IMG/VR virus record: IMGVR_UViG_3300042888_002988
Coordinates: 1 to 64,000 of that record
Reading direction: 5' to 3' (one strand)
Source: a virus
Lineage: Duplodnaviria; Caudoviricetes
DNA length: 64,000 bases
Shown: one piece after another, positions 28,635 through 57,863 of the stretch
Layout: each line of letters opens with the position of its first letter
How positions within the stretch are numbered: the stretch's first letter is position 1
Notes under the pieces: model-generated
Databases searched by the model: none
The model's input: only the letters and a program-made list of their open reading frames with translations
What the model was told of the DNA's origin: nothing
Translations under genes and position numbers: made by a program

Positions 28635-28635
28635 G

Positions 28636-28711
28636 TGCCGCCGGCGGGATTCGAACCCGCACTGTGCGGATTTTAAGTCCGCTGCCATACTGCCAGTTGG
28701 GCTACGGCGGC
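28636..28711 (-). tRNA. trnL: tRNA-Leu(TAA), short variable loop, no encoded CCA
   Basis: Acceptor GCCGCCG/CGGCGGC; anticodon loop CT-TAA-AA; T-arm GCGGG-TTCGAAT-CCCGC; A73. Confidence 0.9.
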
Positions 28712-28719
28712 GATGAGAG

Positions 28720-28794
28720 TGGTGCTGCACCCGGGACTCGAACCCGGAGTCTCCTGCTTCTGAGGCAGGCGCTATACCATTTCGCTAGTGCAGC
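28720..28794 (-). tRNA. trnL: tRNA-Leu(CAG), short variable loop
   Basis: Acceptor GCTGCAC/GTGCAGC; loop CT-CAG-AA; T-loop TTCGAGT; ACCA end. Confidence 0.9.
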
Positions 28795-28796
28795 AT

Positions 28797-28873
28797 TGGT
28801 GCCCAGGGGGAGACTCGAACTCCCATACACCAGATCCTTATTCTGGCGGCTTTACCAGCTTGCCTACCTGGGC
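28797..28873 (-). tRNA. trnL: tRNA-Leu(AAG), A34, short variable loop
   Basis: Acceptor GCCCAGG/CCTGGGC; stem CCAGA/TCTGG with loop AT-AAG-GA; T-loop TTCGAGT; ACCA end. Confidence 0.85.
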
Positions 28874-49943: not shown

Positions 49944-50179
49944 ACGACACCTCCCTTCAAGCGTGGACACTGGTGGCACTCGTGCTACTCGGTGCCCACC
50001 TGCTACTGACGCTCATCCAGATCTGTGATCTGTGGTGGGCCTGGCGTCAGCCCAACCGACGGTCTCCCCGGTATTTCCGGCGGGCCCGTTGGCGGCTGGC
50101 GTTGATTCTGTTTACCATCATCACGGCTGCTGCAGCCATCACCACCATCTACCTACTCCAACAAAACTATGTCCCGTAA
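49940..50179 (+). CDS. small two-TM membrane protein
   Basis: Two hydrophobic helices separated by an Arg-rich loop; GTG start. Confidence 0.55.
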   Translation: MNDTSLQAWTLVALVLLGAHLLLTLIQICDLWWAWRQPNRRSPRYFRRARWRLALILFTIITAAAAITTIYLLQQNYVP

Positions 50180-51029
50180 CATTGATATCGAAATCGTCGC
50201 CGACAGCATCAACCCAGCCGGCAAGCGCATCACCTCAGCCCTGTGGACCTATCCACGGTTCATCCACGCCGAGATCATGACCCACCGCATGTTCAGCCGT
50301 AACGCTGCCAGCAGCCGCGCGATCCCCATCAAGAAGATGATGCAGGCCGTGCGCGAAGATCCTGCCATGCCCGAATGGTGGGGATCCAACAAGCCCGGCA
50401 TGCAAGCTGGAGAGCAGTTGGACGGCGAGGCCAAGGCCGACGCGCTGACAAACTGGCTGGCAGCCAAGACGGCTGCCCTGAGCTTCGCGGAGGAACTGGA
50501 GTCTGTCGGCCTGCACAAGCAGATCGCTAACCGTGTCCTCGAGCCGTGGATGAGAATCACCGTGCTGGTGACCGCCACGGAATGGGACAACTTCTTCGCC
50601 CTGCGTGCGCACCCAGCTGCTCAGCCGGAGTTCCAGATCCTAGCCTACCGGATGCTCAACGCCATGGTGAACCTGAGCCAGCCGAAATACCTGAACTGGG
50701 GAGAGTGGCACGTCCCGTTTGACCCAGGCACGGACAAGTCACTGCATGACCGACTCGTGACATCGGTAGCCAAGGCGGCGCGCACCTCCTACGTGGCCTT
50801 CGACTCAAACAAGACCCTGGAAGAACAGGAGACCTTGTTCAAGAGCATGCGGGACAACGGGCACTGGTCGCCATTCGAGCACCAGGCGCAGGCCGTATCC
50901 GGCATCATGCACAGCGGAAACTTCACCGGTAACTGGCGGCAATACCGCCAGGAGTTCGGCGGACAGAACCGCGAGCACGTGGACCTCGCCGCCCTGCTGG
51001 CAGCCAAACCCGCCTGGATCGAACTCTAA
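50169..51029 (+). CDS. thyX: FAD-dependent thymidylate synthase
   Basis: EIMTHRMFSRNAASSR signature, LRAHPAAQPEF and HWSPFEHQA. Confidence 0.92.
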   Translation: MSRNIDIEIVADSINPAGKRITSALWTYPRFIHAEIMTHRMFSRNAASSRAIPIKKMMQAVREDPAMPEWWGSNKPGMQAGEQLDGEAKADALTNWLAAKTAALSFAEELESVGLHKQIANRVLEPWMRITVLVTATEWDNFFALRAHPAAQPEFQILAYRMLNAMVNLSQPKYLNWGEWHVPFDPGTDKSLHDRLVTSVAKAARTSYVAFDSNKTLEEQETLFKSMRDNGHWSPFEHQAQAVSGIMHSGNFTGNWRQYRQEFGGQNREHVDLAALLAAKPAWIEL

Positions 51030-51040
51030 ACAACACCATC

Positions 51041-51352
51041 ATGGCACCCAAACGCAGATCATTCCAAAACAATCAACCATCCACCACCACAATCCGCGCG
51101 GATGAGTTCACACAGGCCATGGTCGACTTCCTCGCTGGCGGCGAGAAGCGTTCATTCAACGACATCTTCATGGGCGTGCAGGACACCGCCAAGCGACTGT
51201 ATCCTTCCAAGGGTAACGAGCTGATGCGCCTGCAGGCCTATGAGCTGCTCTCAACAGCCTGCGCCCGCGGACGCGTCAGCCGTGAGGGCCGGGAATACTT
51301 CCGGACTGACATCCCGGCGGCGCACGTCGTCGAGGAAGGGGGTGAAGCATGA
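51041..51352 (+). CDS. hypothetical protein, possible winged helix
   Basis: 103 aa; helical pattern with a terminal GRVSREGREY hairpin. Confidence 0.55.
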   Translation: MAPKRRSFQNNQPSTTTIRADEFTQAMVDFLAGGEKRSFNDIFMGVQDTAKRLYPSKGNELMRLQAYELLSTACARGRVSREGREYFRTDIPAAHVVEEGGEA

Positions 51353-51933
51353 TCATCGGCTCATTCTCCGGCGCACTGCAGCTCCTCCACGAGGGCAAGA
51401 TGGTGCGCCGCCTCAGCTGGGGCCACGCGATCCTGTTCATGACGCCGCCGGTCAGCATACCGCTGGAGGACATGACGGGAGCGCTGCGGGCGATCATCAG
51501 GCAGGGCGGGAAGGAAGCACTGGAGGACCAGGGCAACCTGCGCAAGGTCGACCTGGACGACGACAACAAGTGCGTCAACGGGTGGCTACCATCCTTCGAG
51601 GACCTCACCGCTGAGGATTGGGAATACGTCGAGATCAGCACCAAGCTGCCGCCTCGCATGAGTGAGCGGAAGTTCCATCGCACCCTGTTCACTGTCGAGG
51701 TGCTGTCGGAGGAGCCGATCCCCGAGATGGAGCTGAAGGACGTGCTGCACCGCATGGACGTCGACGACTTCGTGGGCAGCTGGAACCGGGAGGCGGCGAT
51801 GGAGCTGAACGCCAACCAGGTCGCCCTGTATCTCTACCAATACGGCTCGGAACCTGGGTTTTTCCAGCTCACGTCCGTAGGGGAGGAACTGCACACCAAA
51901 GAAGACGAGGAGGACCGCAGCCTTGAGCGCTAA
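51349..51933 (+). CDS. DUF2829-like protein
   Basis: FSGALQLLHEGKMVRRLSW and GWLPSFEDLTAEDW. Confidence 0.75.
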   Translation: MIIGSFSGALQLLHEGKMVRRLSWGHAILFMTPPVSIPLEDMTGALRAIIRQGGKEALEDQGNLRKVDLDDDNKCVNGWLPSFEDLTAEDWEYVEISTKLPPRMSERKFHRTLFTVEVLSEEPIPEMELKDVLHRMDVDDFVGSWNREAAMELNANQVALYLYQYGSEPGFFQLTSVGEELHTKEDEEDRSLER

Positions 51934-53931: not shown

Positions 53932-54159
53932 ATGCCAATCGCCCCGCTCCAACCACGCCTCGTAGGCGGGTTTCCACGCTTCGTTTTCAGTCGTGACGGC
54001 TCCCTGAAGGGGGAAGTCACGTCCACCACCCGCCGCTGCCAGCTGGAAGGCTGCAACGGCAAACGCTTGGGCGTCAAATGGCCCGACGGTCGCACCACGT
54101 ATCCATGCACCAAGGGGCTCGAGGGCACCGACGTTGAGGACACCTGGAAAATCGGATAA
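53932..54159 (+). CDS. hypothetical protein
   Basis: 75 aa; CQLEGC...YPCTKG. Confidence 0.6.
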   Translation: MPIAPLQPRLVGGFPRFVFSRDGSLKGEVTSTTRRCQLEGCNGKRLGVKWPDGRTTYPCTKGLEGTDVEDTWKIG

Positions 54160-54169
54160 CAACAACAAC

Positions 54170-54282
54170 ACCGGGGAGCCCGCAGGAAGCGGGATAGAAT
54201 CCGAGAAAGTGGGGCCCCCTCGAAAGGACAACGGTCGTAACCAGCCACCCACCTGCAGGTTCGAGTCCTGCCCCCGGTTCCA
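54170..54282 (+). ncRNA. tRNA-like RNA lacking a canonical anticodon arm
   Basis: Acceptor ACCGGGG/CCCCGGT, U73-CCA, T-arm GCAGG-TTCGAGT-CCTGC, D-like arm CCCGC-AGGAA-GCGGG. Confidence 0.75.
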
Positions 54283-54298
54283 CTCTACACCAACAAAT

Positions 54299-54940
54299 AT
54301 GAAGACCATCGATCAAATCGCATACACCGGCCTCCACTCCAAGGAGGGCAACGCACGCATGACACCCATGAGCAGATCGGAAACCGATCTGTTCCTGAAG
54401 TTGACCATGGGGGAAATGAGCAAGGGCAGCGGTCCGCCCGAAAAAGGCAGCCCTGAGGACAAGCTGCGGGACGAGCTGCTGAAAGAGACGATCACGAAGA
54501 TCATTACGTCACGCATTACAGGTTCGACCGGTCTGCCGTGGGAGGAAGTTGTCAGCTTCTCCGCCCTGGCGTTCATCGGATGCCTCGATGTCATAGAGAA
54601 CCCAGCGCAGTGCGTGCTGTGGGCTTACACACTGGTTTACATGCGGGCCGCCGAAGGTGAGGTCATCGACATGAACCTGCTGGCCCAGTGGTTCCCTGTG
54701 GGCTTCCCGCCGGCGGACTACTACCGTGACGTGTGGGACAAGCAGAAGGGGTATATGCTGCAGGTCGAGAACTGCGACAACTTCCTCGATCGCGGGGAGT
54801 GGTGGCAGGAACTGGCGGCTATCATCAACAAGTCCACGGAGAGGCCCACCATGGGACCGGCCCGTCCGCCAGTCGACACCAGCGACATCGTCGAGGTAGA
54901 TAGCGAAGATGAGATTCACGCGCCGACCCATGAAGCTTGA
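54299..54940 (+). CDS. hypothetical protein
   Basis: ATG at 54299 after the tRNA-like RNA. Confidence 0.65.
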   Translation: MKTIDQIAYTGLHSKEGNARMTPMSRSETDLFLKLTMGEMSKGSGPPEKGSPEDKLRDELLKETITKIITSRITGSTGLPWEEVVSFSALAFIGCLDVIENPAQCVLWAYTLVYMRAAEGEVIDMNLLAQWFPVGFPPADYYRDVWDKQKGYMLQVENCDNFLDRGEWWQELAAIINKSTERPTMGPARPPVDTSDIVEVDSEDEIHAPTHEA

Positions 54941-55493
54941 TCCGAACGAACGCAACGTAACGAATCGGCACTGGCTGCTGGCAGATCTTCACCTGGGGCA
55001 CCACAACGTCCTACGCCACGATAGTAGGCCGTGGGATGACATTATTGCTCACGATGCGGCGATGACCATTGCCTGCGCGGCGCCTGGCCAGAAAAACCGC
55101 ACGCTGTGGCTGCTGGGAGACATCGCCTCACGTAAGGCGGGGCTGGAGGAGTTCATGAAAGTCCAGCGTGGCCGTTGGGGGAAGATAATCCTGATCCGAG
55201 GCAACCACGACGACAAGATCGCGTGGCGGCACCGGGACTTGTTCGACGAGGCACACGAGGCGATCTACGTGCGCCTGACTCGCGATGTCAGGATGTATTT
55301 GAGCCACTACGCGCACCGCACCTGGCGCGGCTCGCACCGTGGAACGTATCACCTGCACGGCCACAGCCACGGCGCGCTACCTCGCCACGGCCGGTCGATG
55401 GACGTCGGCGCGCCGTGCGTTGGCTATAAGCCGATCTGCCTGACGGAATGCATCGAGATACTGGAAGCTGCACTACCAACCAATCATCACTGA
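54930..55493 (+). CDS. calcineurin-like metallophosphoesterase
   Basis: ADLHLGH, LLGD, RGNHD, SHY, HLHGHSH and DVG motifs. Confidence 0.9.
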   Translation: MKLDPNERNVTNRHWLLADLHLGHHNVLRHDSRPWDDIIAHDAAMTIACAAPGQKNRTLWLLGDIASRKAGLEEFMKVQRGRWGKIILIRGNHDDKIAWRHRDLFDEAHEAIYVRLTRDVRMYLSHYAHRTWRGSHRGTYHLHGHSHGALPRHGRSMDVGAPCVGYKPICLTECIEILEAALPTNHH

Positions 55494-55826: not shown

Positions 55827-57863
55827 ATGAACACTACCCTAACCCCACCAACTGACCCGGATACATTCTGGGCATCCGTAGACGCTCGCTTCCTCGAGAA
55901 AGTCGATCGCGTCTTTGACGCCTCGCCGAAAACCGTGTGGATCGAGCTGCTGCAGAACGCACGCCGCGCCGGCGCCGACAAGGTTTCCGTCAGCTTCACC
56001 AAAGTGGACGAGCACCACGTCGGCGTGCTGTTCGAGGACAACGGCTCCGGCTGTGACAGTCCTGAGATCCTGCTGCGCCTGGCCGCCCGCGGCTGGAGCC
56101 AGAACGTCGAGCACGAGGAGGATCCCGCCGGCATGGGGTTCTTCTGCCTGTCCAACTTCCCGACCGTGGAGGTCGCCTCACGCCTGTGGAGCACCACACT
56201 GACGCCGACCATCTTCCGCGGGGCCGAGCCTGCCCGCCGTCAGATCAACACTGACTTCGCGCAGGGGATGGTGGTGAACTGGGTGTGGGAGGGCGTAGAC
56301 GTCAGCACGCTGGACATCAAGCTGCGTGAGGCCGCCGAGTTCTGCGGACTGAAGGAGGTGGACATCTACGCCGAGGGTGTGAAGCAGATCGCCATAGTTC
56401 CCGGTGACTTCATGGCCGGCTGCACCATGTTCCGGGACATTCCCGAGCTGGGCGTCAGGATCGGCGCACGGGAGCCAGACGCCAGGGAGCGTTACCTCTA
56501 CGACTTCGGCCACCCCAGGATCAAGCTGAACTTCCGCGGCGTGGTATTGGAATGGGTGAGCAATGCGATGGGTGATTACTTGCCGAACATCGCCAGGAGC
56601 CACGTGCAGCTCCACGTCGAAGTGGCGCACACACGGGAGCTGCAGCTGGTGTTGCCGGCCCGCAATGCTGTGAAGCACAACGCTGCTAGGGCGGCCCTGC
56701 TGGAGGCGTGCGAGAAGCTGGTCTACGAGTGGATCAACGACCACGCGACACCCACCAAAGGCCGCGGAACGGTAGGTCACAAGCTGCCGTTCAGTATCTA
56801 CCGGAGGGCACTGGACAAGTTCGGGGTGGACCTGGGCGAGGCTGAGTTCGATCTAAGCCAGGTGTCGTATCACAGCAGCTCCACGACAGGTCTGAAGCTG
56901 CTGGCGCACCCGGATGCGCAGCGGTGGCAGGACTTCGAGACGGTGCTCGGACTCTACAACCGCGAGCATGTCGGCAAGGAGTCGTTCCTGATCCCCTTCA
57001 CGCCCAACAACGACATGCAGGGTTACTCGTGGTATGACGAGCTGCCGAAGCTGACCGACATCATCCTGCGCGTGGACGGGCGTGAGATGCGACTTGAGGA
57101 GCTTGCGGAGTGCCAGTTCGACAAGCACGAGGACAAGCAGTTCCACGAGTTCGTGGAGGACATCGAAGTGGAGTTCGCGGTGGACAACGGAGAATCCTAC
57201 AAGTTCAAACCGGCCGCTGTCGTCGCCGGTGAGAGCACGGTGAACTACTTCGACGCGCTGGACCGGGATGTTCACATCTTCCTGTCCCGCACCATCCTGA
57301 CGGATCCGAAGGTGATGTATGCGACCATGGACCGGCTGAGCGGGTGCTTATTTGAGCCCAGCGGCGATTCGGAAGACAGCTCTGAGGCGCAGTCGGAAGA
57401 GTTCGATAAAGACCTGGCGGCTTGGATCCTGAGGTTGTGTGACCGCCGGAAAGAGGCGCTGCTTCACATCCTGGAGCAGGAGGCGCGCAACATCGGCTAC
57501 GACGTGCGCGATGCCTCACTGAGCTGGACCATCCGCTACGATGGCAGGTTCCACGAGGAAGAGGACTTCCCGGGTATGCAGGTCATCAGTTTCCAATACA
57601 GCAAGGAGGAGGCTGACAACCACAAGTTCCTGTGCGCCGAGCCCCGCGGCACGGACAGCTGGATCGAGGAGGTCGTGTCGGAGACTGAGATCACCCACGC
57701 GCGCATCGAAGCCTACCTGCGCATTCAGCGCGAGTTCGATGACGATGACGGGTGGATCCTTGATAGCCCGCGCAAGCCCGTCGACTTGGACAAGTGGGAG
57801 AAGGAGAACCAGGAGAAACTTGCTGCTTACGAGAGTGAGCGCGAGGACGACGCCGACGTGTAA
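55827..57863 (+). CDS. GHKL (HSP90-like) ATPase domain protein
   Basis: ELLQNARRAGA, FEDNGSG and EDPAGMGFFCL motifs. Confidence 0.85.
   Translation: MNTTLTPPTDPDTFWASVDARFLEKVDRVFDASPKTVWIELLQNARRAGADKVSVSFTKVDEHHVGVLFEDNGSGCDSPEILLRLAARGWSQNVEHEEDPAGMGFFCLSNFPTVEVASRLWSTTLTPTIFRGAEPARRQINTDFAQGMVVNWVWEGVDVSTLDIKLREAAEFCGLKEVDIYAEGVKQIAIVPGDFMAGCTMFRDIPELGVRIGAREPDARERYLYDFGHPRIKLNFRGVVLEWVSNAMGDYLPNIARSHVQLHVEVAHTRELQLVLPARNAVKHNAARAALLEACEKLVYEWINDHATPTKGRGTVGHKLPFSIYRRALDKFGVDLGEAEFDLSQVSYHSSSTTGLKLLAHPDAQRWQDFETVLGLYNREHVGKESFLIPFTPNNDMQGYSWYDELPKLTDIILRVDGREMRLEELAECQFDKHEDKQFHEFVEDIEVEFAVDNGESYKFKPAAVVAGESTVNYFDALDRDVHIFLSRTILTDPKVMYATMDRLSGCLFEPSGDSEDSSEAQSEEFDKDLAAWILRLCDRRKEALLHILEQEARNIGYDVRDASLSWTIRYDGRFHEEEDFPGMQVISFQYSKEEADNHKFLCAEPRGTDSWIEEVVSETEITHARIEAYLRIQREFDDDDGWILDSPRKPVDLDKWEKENQEKLAAYESEREDDADV

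Follow-up and report, generated by a model that had tools for sequence, protein, structure and literature searches.

The window analysed here, a stretch of 64,000 nucleotides within a 200,158-bp IMG/VR phage record, encodes at 54170-54282 on the positive strand a 113-nt element that keeps the body of a tRNA and carries an invariant module where the anticodon arm would be expected. The element is proposed to be a tRNA-processed, non-decoding RNA of a conserved phage family whose module may bind a conserved host factor, a reading drawn from sequence comparison and given about even credence. The family is apparently undescribed, being absent from Rfam 15 and not found in the papers searched. The presence of tRNA genes in phages is commonly attributed to codon supply or to the replacement of tRNAs cut by host defences, and here the tRNA body appears to be kept merely as a chassis, with selection holding constant a module that is foreign to tRNAs. 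Were the target of this module a conserved host factor or ligand, the family would be an RNA-based tool of a new class, for host takeover or counter-defence. As the family is small, sharply defined and approximately 95 nt long in its short form, the proposal is directly testable.

DNA runs place the source phage in lake water, and a single copy of the element is counted in its genome with the covariance model of the family, R1. As a preliminary description of this DNA had noted, the element fills an intergenic gap: the TAA of the upstream positive-strand ORF (53932-54159, 75 codons) lies 10 nt before it, and the ATG of the downstream positive-strand ORF (213 codons) at 54299 follows after 16 nt. 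The flanks resemble those of the real tRNAs of the same phage, with CCAACAAC, which is similar to the 5′ spacer CAACAACAAC, preceding tRNA-Cys, CUCUC-type spacers located 3′ of tRNA-Leu(CAG) and tRNA-Tyr, and a CCA encoded in most of the tRNAs. No sigma-70-like promoter or terminator belonging to the element itself was found at the locus. The element is probably co-transcribed with its flanking genes, and the RNA would then be excised in the manner of a tRNA, by RNase P at the 5′ end and by 3′ trimming to the encoded CCA. The same arrangement, with short spacers to two positive-strand genes and no promoter or terminator of its own, could also be read as a pure processing mark at which RNase P and 3′ enzymes cut a polycistronic mRNA, the insert being functionless; however, an acceptor stem and T arm would suffice for cutting, and a mark of this kind would not keep approximately 30 unpaired nucleotides invariant across phages that have no neighbour genes in common, making this explanation unlikely.

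Neither Pfam nor PHROG assigns a family to the 75-aa and 213-aa proteins encoded on the two sides of the element, and their atlas look-alikes fall below the reliable range, with a weak resemblance of the 75-aa protein to small barrels of the PRC/RimM type as the sole lead. A few kb upstream of the element are genes encoding a ThyX thymidylate synthase (50169-51029) and a Tad2-like (Thoeris anti-defence 2) protein (51349-51933), and downstream are genes encoding a phosphoesterase (54909-55493) and a 678-aa protein with a weak GHKL-ATPase match (55827-57863). Elsewhere in the window, on the negative strand at 28635-28873, three tRNAs whose anticodons (UAA, CAG, and AAG) are those of leucine measure just 75-77 nt and have a class I shape, without the long extra arm usual in bacterial tRNA-Leu; one of the three has no encoded CCA. 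Outside the window, ARAGORN reports a cluster at 157068-157958 of G000 that consists of a tmRNA, a tRNA-Met, and a tRNA whose "anticodon" (aaca) has four bases. Genes for a CCA-adding enzyme, SmpB, Ro60 (TROVE), and RtcB were sought in the 200-kb phage and none was found.

Each part of the fold recognised in the preliminary description, namely the acceptor, D arm, T arm, U73-CCA end, unpaired strand, helix, and both mini-hairpins, was recovered at the position first assigned to it (Table 1). Residues A8 and G9 lie between the acceptor 5′ strand and the D arm. The conserved hairpin can be drawn two ways, either as GGU/RCC with a tetraloop (GGU-CGUA-ACC, 54233-54242) or as GG(U)/(G)CC closing a loop of 8-10 nt, and the sole informative variant in the family, a double change of the outer pair in L028 (AG...CU), favours the second drawing. 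Folded as a single sequence, the element has a minimum free energy of -41 kcal/mol and a z-score of -0.42 against shuffles; chance is not excludable from this one sequence by itself at this value, so that the argument depends on the relatives.

Table 1. Features of the window RNA and its flanking spacers.
Feature	Position	Strand	Remarks
5′ spacer CAACAACAAC, A/C-rich, from the upstream stop to the RNA; presumed RNase P leader	54160..54169	+	
Acceptor stem, 5′ strand, ACCGGGG	54170..54176	+	Pairs with 54272-54278; 6/7 pairs compensatory in the family
D arm CCCGC-AGGAA-GCGGG; loop AGGAA holds the elbow GG	54179..54193	+	3/4 modelled pairs double-changed
Invariant unpaired strand AUAGAAUCCGAGAAA, 15 nt; replaces position 26 and the anticodon arm	54194..54208	+	
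Helix P, 5′ strand, GUGGG; placed where class II tRNAs have their extra (variable) arm	54209..54213	+	Pairs with 54248-54252
Lineage-specific insertion; includes mini-hairpin CCU-CGAA-AGG (54218-54227)	54214..54232	+	Window and L004 only
Conserved hairpin GGUCGUAACCAGCC; family consensus GGUCGUNRCCAGCC	54233..54246	+	11/14 positions invariant
Helix P, 3′ strand, CCCAC	54248..54252	+	Covariation
Connector YU (CU here) before the T stem	54253..54254	+	CU or GU in all members; U invariant
T arm GCAGG-UUCGAGU-CCUGC, canonical T loop	54255..54271	+	2/5 stem pairs covary
Acceptor stem, 3′ strand, CCCCGGU	54272..54278	+	Covariation
Discriminator U73 (54279) and genome-encoded CCA (54280-54282)	54279..54282	+	
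3′ spacer CUCUACACCAACAAAU, up to the next ATG (54299)	54283..54298	+	

At least 11 further members (ten full-length and one partial), in addition to one 3′ fragment, were identified in lake, soil, and other metagenomes, giving a family of at least 12 sequences including the window, about eight of which are clearly distinct. The sources include one IMG/VR contig (L048) and one contig of a Dysgonomonas assembly (L096, 4 kb). Five relatives of the downstream 213-aa protein share 47-83% identity with it; the contigs of four were readable, and the full RNA is found at the same place in three of these (L003, L004, and L005) and its 3′ end in the fourth. L004 has the 113-nt form, with a change of C2 to U that gives a U2.G71 pair. 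The L003 and L005 RNAs are 97-nt forms without the first mini-hairpin in which helix P is GGAGG/CCUCC, as opposed to GUGGG/CCCAC; L003 additionally has a G1.U72 pair and the D stem CCGAC/GUCGG, the latter being found in L048 as well. Pattern scans added L035, L048, L011, L021, L022, L019, L028 (partial), and L096, the last of which is a short form of approximately 95 nt. L035 has the acceptor ACCUGGG/CCCAGGU and L048 the acceptor GCAAGAG/CUCUUGC, both with the short D arm and an encoded CCA. The neighbour genes that can be named are all of phage type and differ by member, and include portal, cytosine methylase, endonuclease VII, exonuclease, and tmRNA genes.

BLAST of 50,697 GenBank phages returned no member, the only matches being those of the T arm to ordinary tRNAs, and pattern and protein-based scans of IMG/VR recovered only L048 beyond the record of the window itself; these IMG/VR scans found no short-D-arm body with other cargo, and never the strand without the hairpin. 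A covariance model search of 151 Bacteroidota genomes returned only the Dysgonomonas contig and one Leu-like body with other cargo. A 241-nt contig of run X24 matches only positions 54170-54209 of the window (the acceptor 5′ strand, D arm, and invariant strand) before diverging, and by its sequence is probably a further family member with a different helix P. An L004-like variant of the locus is present on contigs of runs labelled RNA-Seq, which are probably DNA and are uninformative on transcription and on the ends of the RNA.

R1 was built from the family alignment, and covariation was counted on a model-based alignment (A3). The window copy scores 107.6 bits with R1 and the other members 91-115 bits (64 bits for the partial member), while ordinary tRNAs reach at most 28 bits; the features that define the family in R1 and are present in the window are the tRNA body, AUAGAAUCCGAGAAAG, a covarying helix P, GGUCGUNRCCAGCC, YU, and the T arm. 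In A3, which is fitted to the model and so favours structure, standard pairs occupy 96.9% of pair cells, compared with 34-50% when the partners are slid by 1-3 columns, and the acceptor stem is paired in 100% of cells across the family. Changes on both sides were counted in 15 of 23 pairs, with the observed covariation score reached by none of 500 shuffles, and these changes are also plain in the raw MAFFT alignment. In helix P, three of the five pairs covary, with up to five pair types at one position. RNAalifold independently predicts identical helices, with no partner for the unpaired strand and no added pairs. The comparison thus shows that the acceptor, D arm, T arm, and one extra hairpin are maintained by compensatory changes. 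The G.U pairs would become C.A on the opposite strand, and the positive strand is therefore the RNA.

These counts bear directly on what the preliminary description had put forward. Its suggestion to look for homologues in phage metagenomes and for covariation among them proved productive, since both were found, and its view of a tRNA-like RNA that keeps the acceptor, elbow, and CCA end is supported by the covariation among the 12 members. The argument that the RNA cannot decode also holds across the family, as a normal anticodon arm is present in no relative. An alternative is that the element is a tRNA pseudogene in decay or resembles a tRNA by chance, a reading to which the silence of default tRNA finders and the unremarkable folding energy would lend themselves, and which the preliminary description would have accepted had homologues shown a normal arm with random decay. 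The compensatory changes in every helix, the invariant unpaired segments, and the lack of a normal arm in all 12 members refute this, leaving it exceedingly improbable.

The helices of the RNA vary, and its unpaired parts do not. AUAGAAUCCGAGAAA is identical in 11 of 11 full-length members though the helices differ, an invariance that is overstated because motif-based patterns would miss divergent members. Most of the distant members were found with patterns requiring either the strand or the hairpin, and each motif is kept where the scan did not require it. Together with the first G of helix P, the strand is invariant on contigs ranging from 30 to 65% GC, and the GGUCGU and CCAGCC segments of the hairpin are likewise invariant except for the one covarying pair in L028. 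Constancy of an unpaired module alongside differing acceptor, D, and P helices is what a binding or catalytic core would be expected to show. The 19-nt segment containing CCU-CGAA-AGG lies outside this core: 2-4 nt occupy its place in the other 10 of the 12 members, and its restriction to the window and L004 marks it as a tolerated insertion. A branched domain bearing two UCG(A/U)A loops, as proposed in the preliminary description, is therefore not a feature of the family, and the idea of paired T-loop motifs fails with it, as the first mini-hairpin is a lineage-specific insertion; the likeness of the second hairpin to a T loop does not hold either, the fifth loop position being C in four members. 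By eye, no convincing pseudoknot between the strand and the loop was seen (at most UCG with CGA, 3 bp), and neither the 16S nor the 23S rRNA of a Bacteroidota bacterium proved more complementary to the strand and loop than to shuffled queries.

Given the position of the extra hairpin, it is conceivable that the RNA acts as a decoy: a defensive nuclease or toxin with class II tRNAs or tRNA 3′ ends as its target would be soaked up or blocked by the elbow, extra arm, and CCA end, outside translation; this would be a special case of the host-factor reading. A class II-like body with its extra hairpin at the variable-arm position suits such a role, as does the presence of other counter-defence genes in the window, such as the Tad2-like gene, and defences that cut tRNAs do exist, among them Septu, which cleaves the variable loop of tRNA-Tyr (PMC13096335). 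However, the invariant loop and strand are unlike the variable arms of the tRNA-Ser or tRNA-Tyr of the phage itself, and defence systems are patchy and host-specific, yet the module is identical across phages spanning the above range of GC content. This decoy function is considered rather unlikely.

Two tRNA bodies carry the module. The short-D-arm body is found in six members, with CCA encoded in all six, and a tRNA-Leu-like body is found in L011, L021, L022, L019, L028, and L096 (five full-length, one partial), none of which has an encoded CCA. The D arm of the latter is GGCGGAAUUGGUAGACGC or close to it, which is the exact D arm of bacterial tRNA-Leu, and the acceptor AGUCAGG occurs in some of these members. 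An identical module thus sits on two bodies, and the phage genes around it are unrelated. Eleven of the 12 members have U as the discriminator, the exception being an A73 in one tRNA-Leu-like member.

The anticodon is not among the features read by LeuRS and SerRS, and a synthetase blind to it (SerRS, LeuRS, or another) could charge the RNA as an aminoacylated non-decoding tRNA, to serve as a donor outside the ribosome or as a carrier to it. The intact acceptor, elbow, and CCA, the prevalence of U73, and the Leu-like members with their exact tRNA-Leu D arm and single A73 are all compatible with charging, and a precedent may exist in the tRNA-Other of Bacillus cereus, which PMC5389517 presents as a charged pseudo-tRNA. 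On the other side, there is no G3.U70 pair, no conserved transferase or synthetase-like gene occurs nearby, and the invariance of the cargo would be left unexplained. The acceptor changes at six of its seven pairs and the D arm is swapped between the subgroups, so that no synthetase identity set is conserved. An aminoacyl carrier is accordingly regarded as a rather improbable function for the family.

Leu-like bodies with other inserts were also encountered. In L022 (5768-5890, negative strand) and L021 (634-751, negative strand), a further body of the tRNA-Leu type (GGGGAGG...GCGGAAUGGAAGACGC...UGCAGGUUCGAUUCCUGC), whose insert differs and measures approximately 115 nt, is located directly upstream of the family member. 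A Bacteroidota genome contig, L256 (G007:C49), contains at 1461-1575 on the positive strand a Leu-like body with the acceptor UGGGUGG/CCACCCA and A73, whose insert includes the hairpin GGAGG-GUCGUUGG-CCUCC and which scores 41 bits with R1. The cargo of these bodies is varied, whereas the present family has one fixed module that is also found on the short-D-arm body. Judged by sequence, these bodies with differing inserts fit a modular "body plus cargo" picture.

Under the proposed host-factor reading, the tRNA body would provide processing, stability, and an L-shaped handle, and the invariant module would be the working part, presenting a surface that binds a factor which bacteria of different phyla have in common, a catalytic role being less likely. 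Since no protein gene accompanies the RNA consistently from phage to phage, the partner is probably a host factor. This factor would most plausibly belong to tRNA or translation metabolism, and the phage may titrate, block, or redirect it. A more specific and tentative suggestion, possible but doubtful at present, is that the module of approximately 45 nt, made up of the 16-nt strand and the hairpin with its loop of 10 nt, works as an aptamer-like or a catalytic core that phages of different bacterial phyla deploy on a tRNA chassis against one universally conserved host component or small molecule. If so, the family and the other Leu-like inserts would together point to a natural modular system of "tRNA-scaffolded cargo RNA" in phages.

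Among known RNA classes, ordinary tRNAs are the obvious reference, and in the tool-based check foreseen in the preliminary description, ARAGORN at default settings and Rfam 15, at the gathering threshold and at E<=10, make no call for the window copy. The RF00005 model (gathering threshold 29 bits) leaves the window copy unmatched even when E values of up to 10 are admitted, and L011, L022, and L096, the three Leu-like members scored with it, reach 41.6-44 bits only with the entire module treated as an insertion. Several candidate assignments were rejected. A tRNA-Ser(CGA) with a 16-nt intron, called in the window by ARAGORN with -ps80 -i, depends on a CGA hairpin located in the insertion, which is missing from 10 of the 12 members. 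An anticodon stem of AUAG(A) with CUAU/UCUA, drawn in the Rfam alignment of L011 and L096, cannot be formed by the GC-rich members, and is rejected as a family feature because covariation backs a helix starting at G40. The "tmRNA*" calls of ARAGORN that overlap L011 and L021 are without Rfam support. With tRNAs (RF00005), the family shares the 7-bp acceptor, the single-stranded discriminator, the CCA end, a UUCRANY T loop (UUCGAGU), and the GG of the D loop (AGGAA or AAUUGGUAGA); it differs in that no member has an anticodon arm with a 5-bp stem and 7-nt loop (U33, triplet). The long extra hairpin just 5′ of the T stem is shared with class II tRNAs such as bacterial and phage tRNA-Leu, however the family has the 15-nt invariant unpaired strand instead of an anticodon stem-loop.

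The tRNA-like domain of tmRNA is likewise part of a phage-encodable RNA without an anticodon arm, raising the question of whether the family is a ribosome- or SmpB-directed mimic that gets into stalled ribosomes or blocks them, or else titrates SmpB. Both the window phage and that of L035 encode a tmRNA: on the latter, a 29-kb metagenome contig, the family member (2450-2545, negative strand) lies upstream, at a distance of 615 nt, of a phage tmRNA gene (1418-1834) on the same strand that matches RF00023 at 127 bits. The mycobacteriophage DS6A also provides a precedent with a "TLD only" tmRNA that is thought to titrate SmpB (PMC4131195), and titration of a host factor is a mode of action it may share with the family. 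However, tmRNA (RF00023 and the permuted forms) has G3.U70, where the family has C-G, A-U, U-A, or G-C at 3-70, as well as a tag reading frame and pseudoknots, none of which is present in the window element. The D stem of the family is further a normal one, which that of the tmRNA domain is not, and its conserved module is different; the window element matches no Rfam tmRNA model and the phage has no SmpB gene. A mimic of this kind is decidedly unlikely.

Y RNAs of the bacterial and phage YrlA type (RF02553) are also non-coding RNAs that include a tRNA-like module. They are permuted, ending in a stem that binds Ro, with Ro60 as partner, whereas the ends of the family RNA form the acceptor stem; RF02553 does not match the window element and the TROVE gene is absent from the 200-kb phage. 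The long D stem with a small loop and the long extra arm are shared with tRNA-Sec and allo-tRNAs (RF01852; PMC5389517), in which the acceptor/T lengths are 8/5, 8/4, or 9/3 as opposed to 7/5 in the family, which has no anticodon arm (UCA in tRNA-Sec). The match of the window to RF01852 is weak, at 14.1 bits and E 6.3 against a gathering score of 47.

A further parallel in arrangement is an engineered one. In the tRNA scaffold of Ponchon and Dardel, a recombinant RNA reportedly replaces the anticodon arm, and the chimera is said to be processed and stabilised like a tRNA. By analogy, the arrangement described here looks like a natural version of this laboratory device with a fixed cargo, as both consist of a tRNA body carrying an inserted RNA; the laboratory scaffold is engineered and bears its cargo on a retained anticodon stem, whereas the phage family is natural, conserved, and without an anticodon stem.
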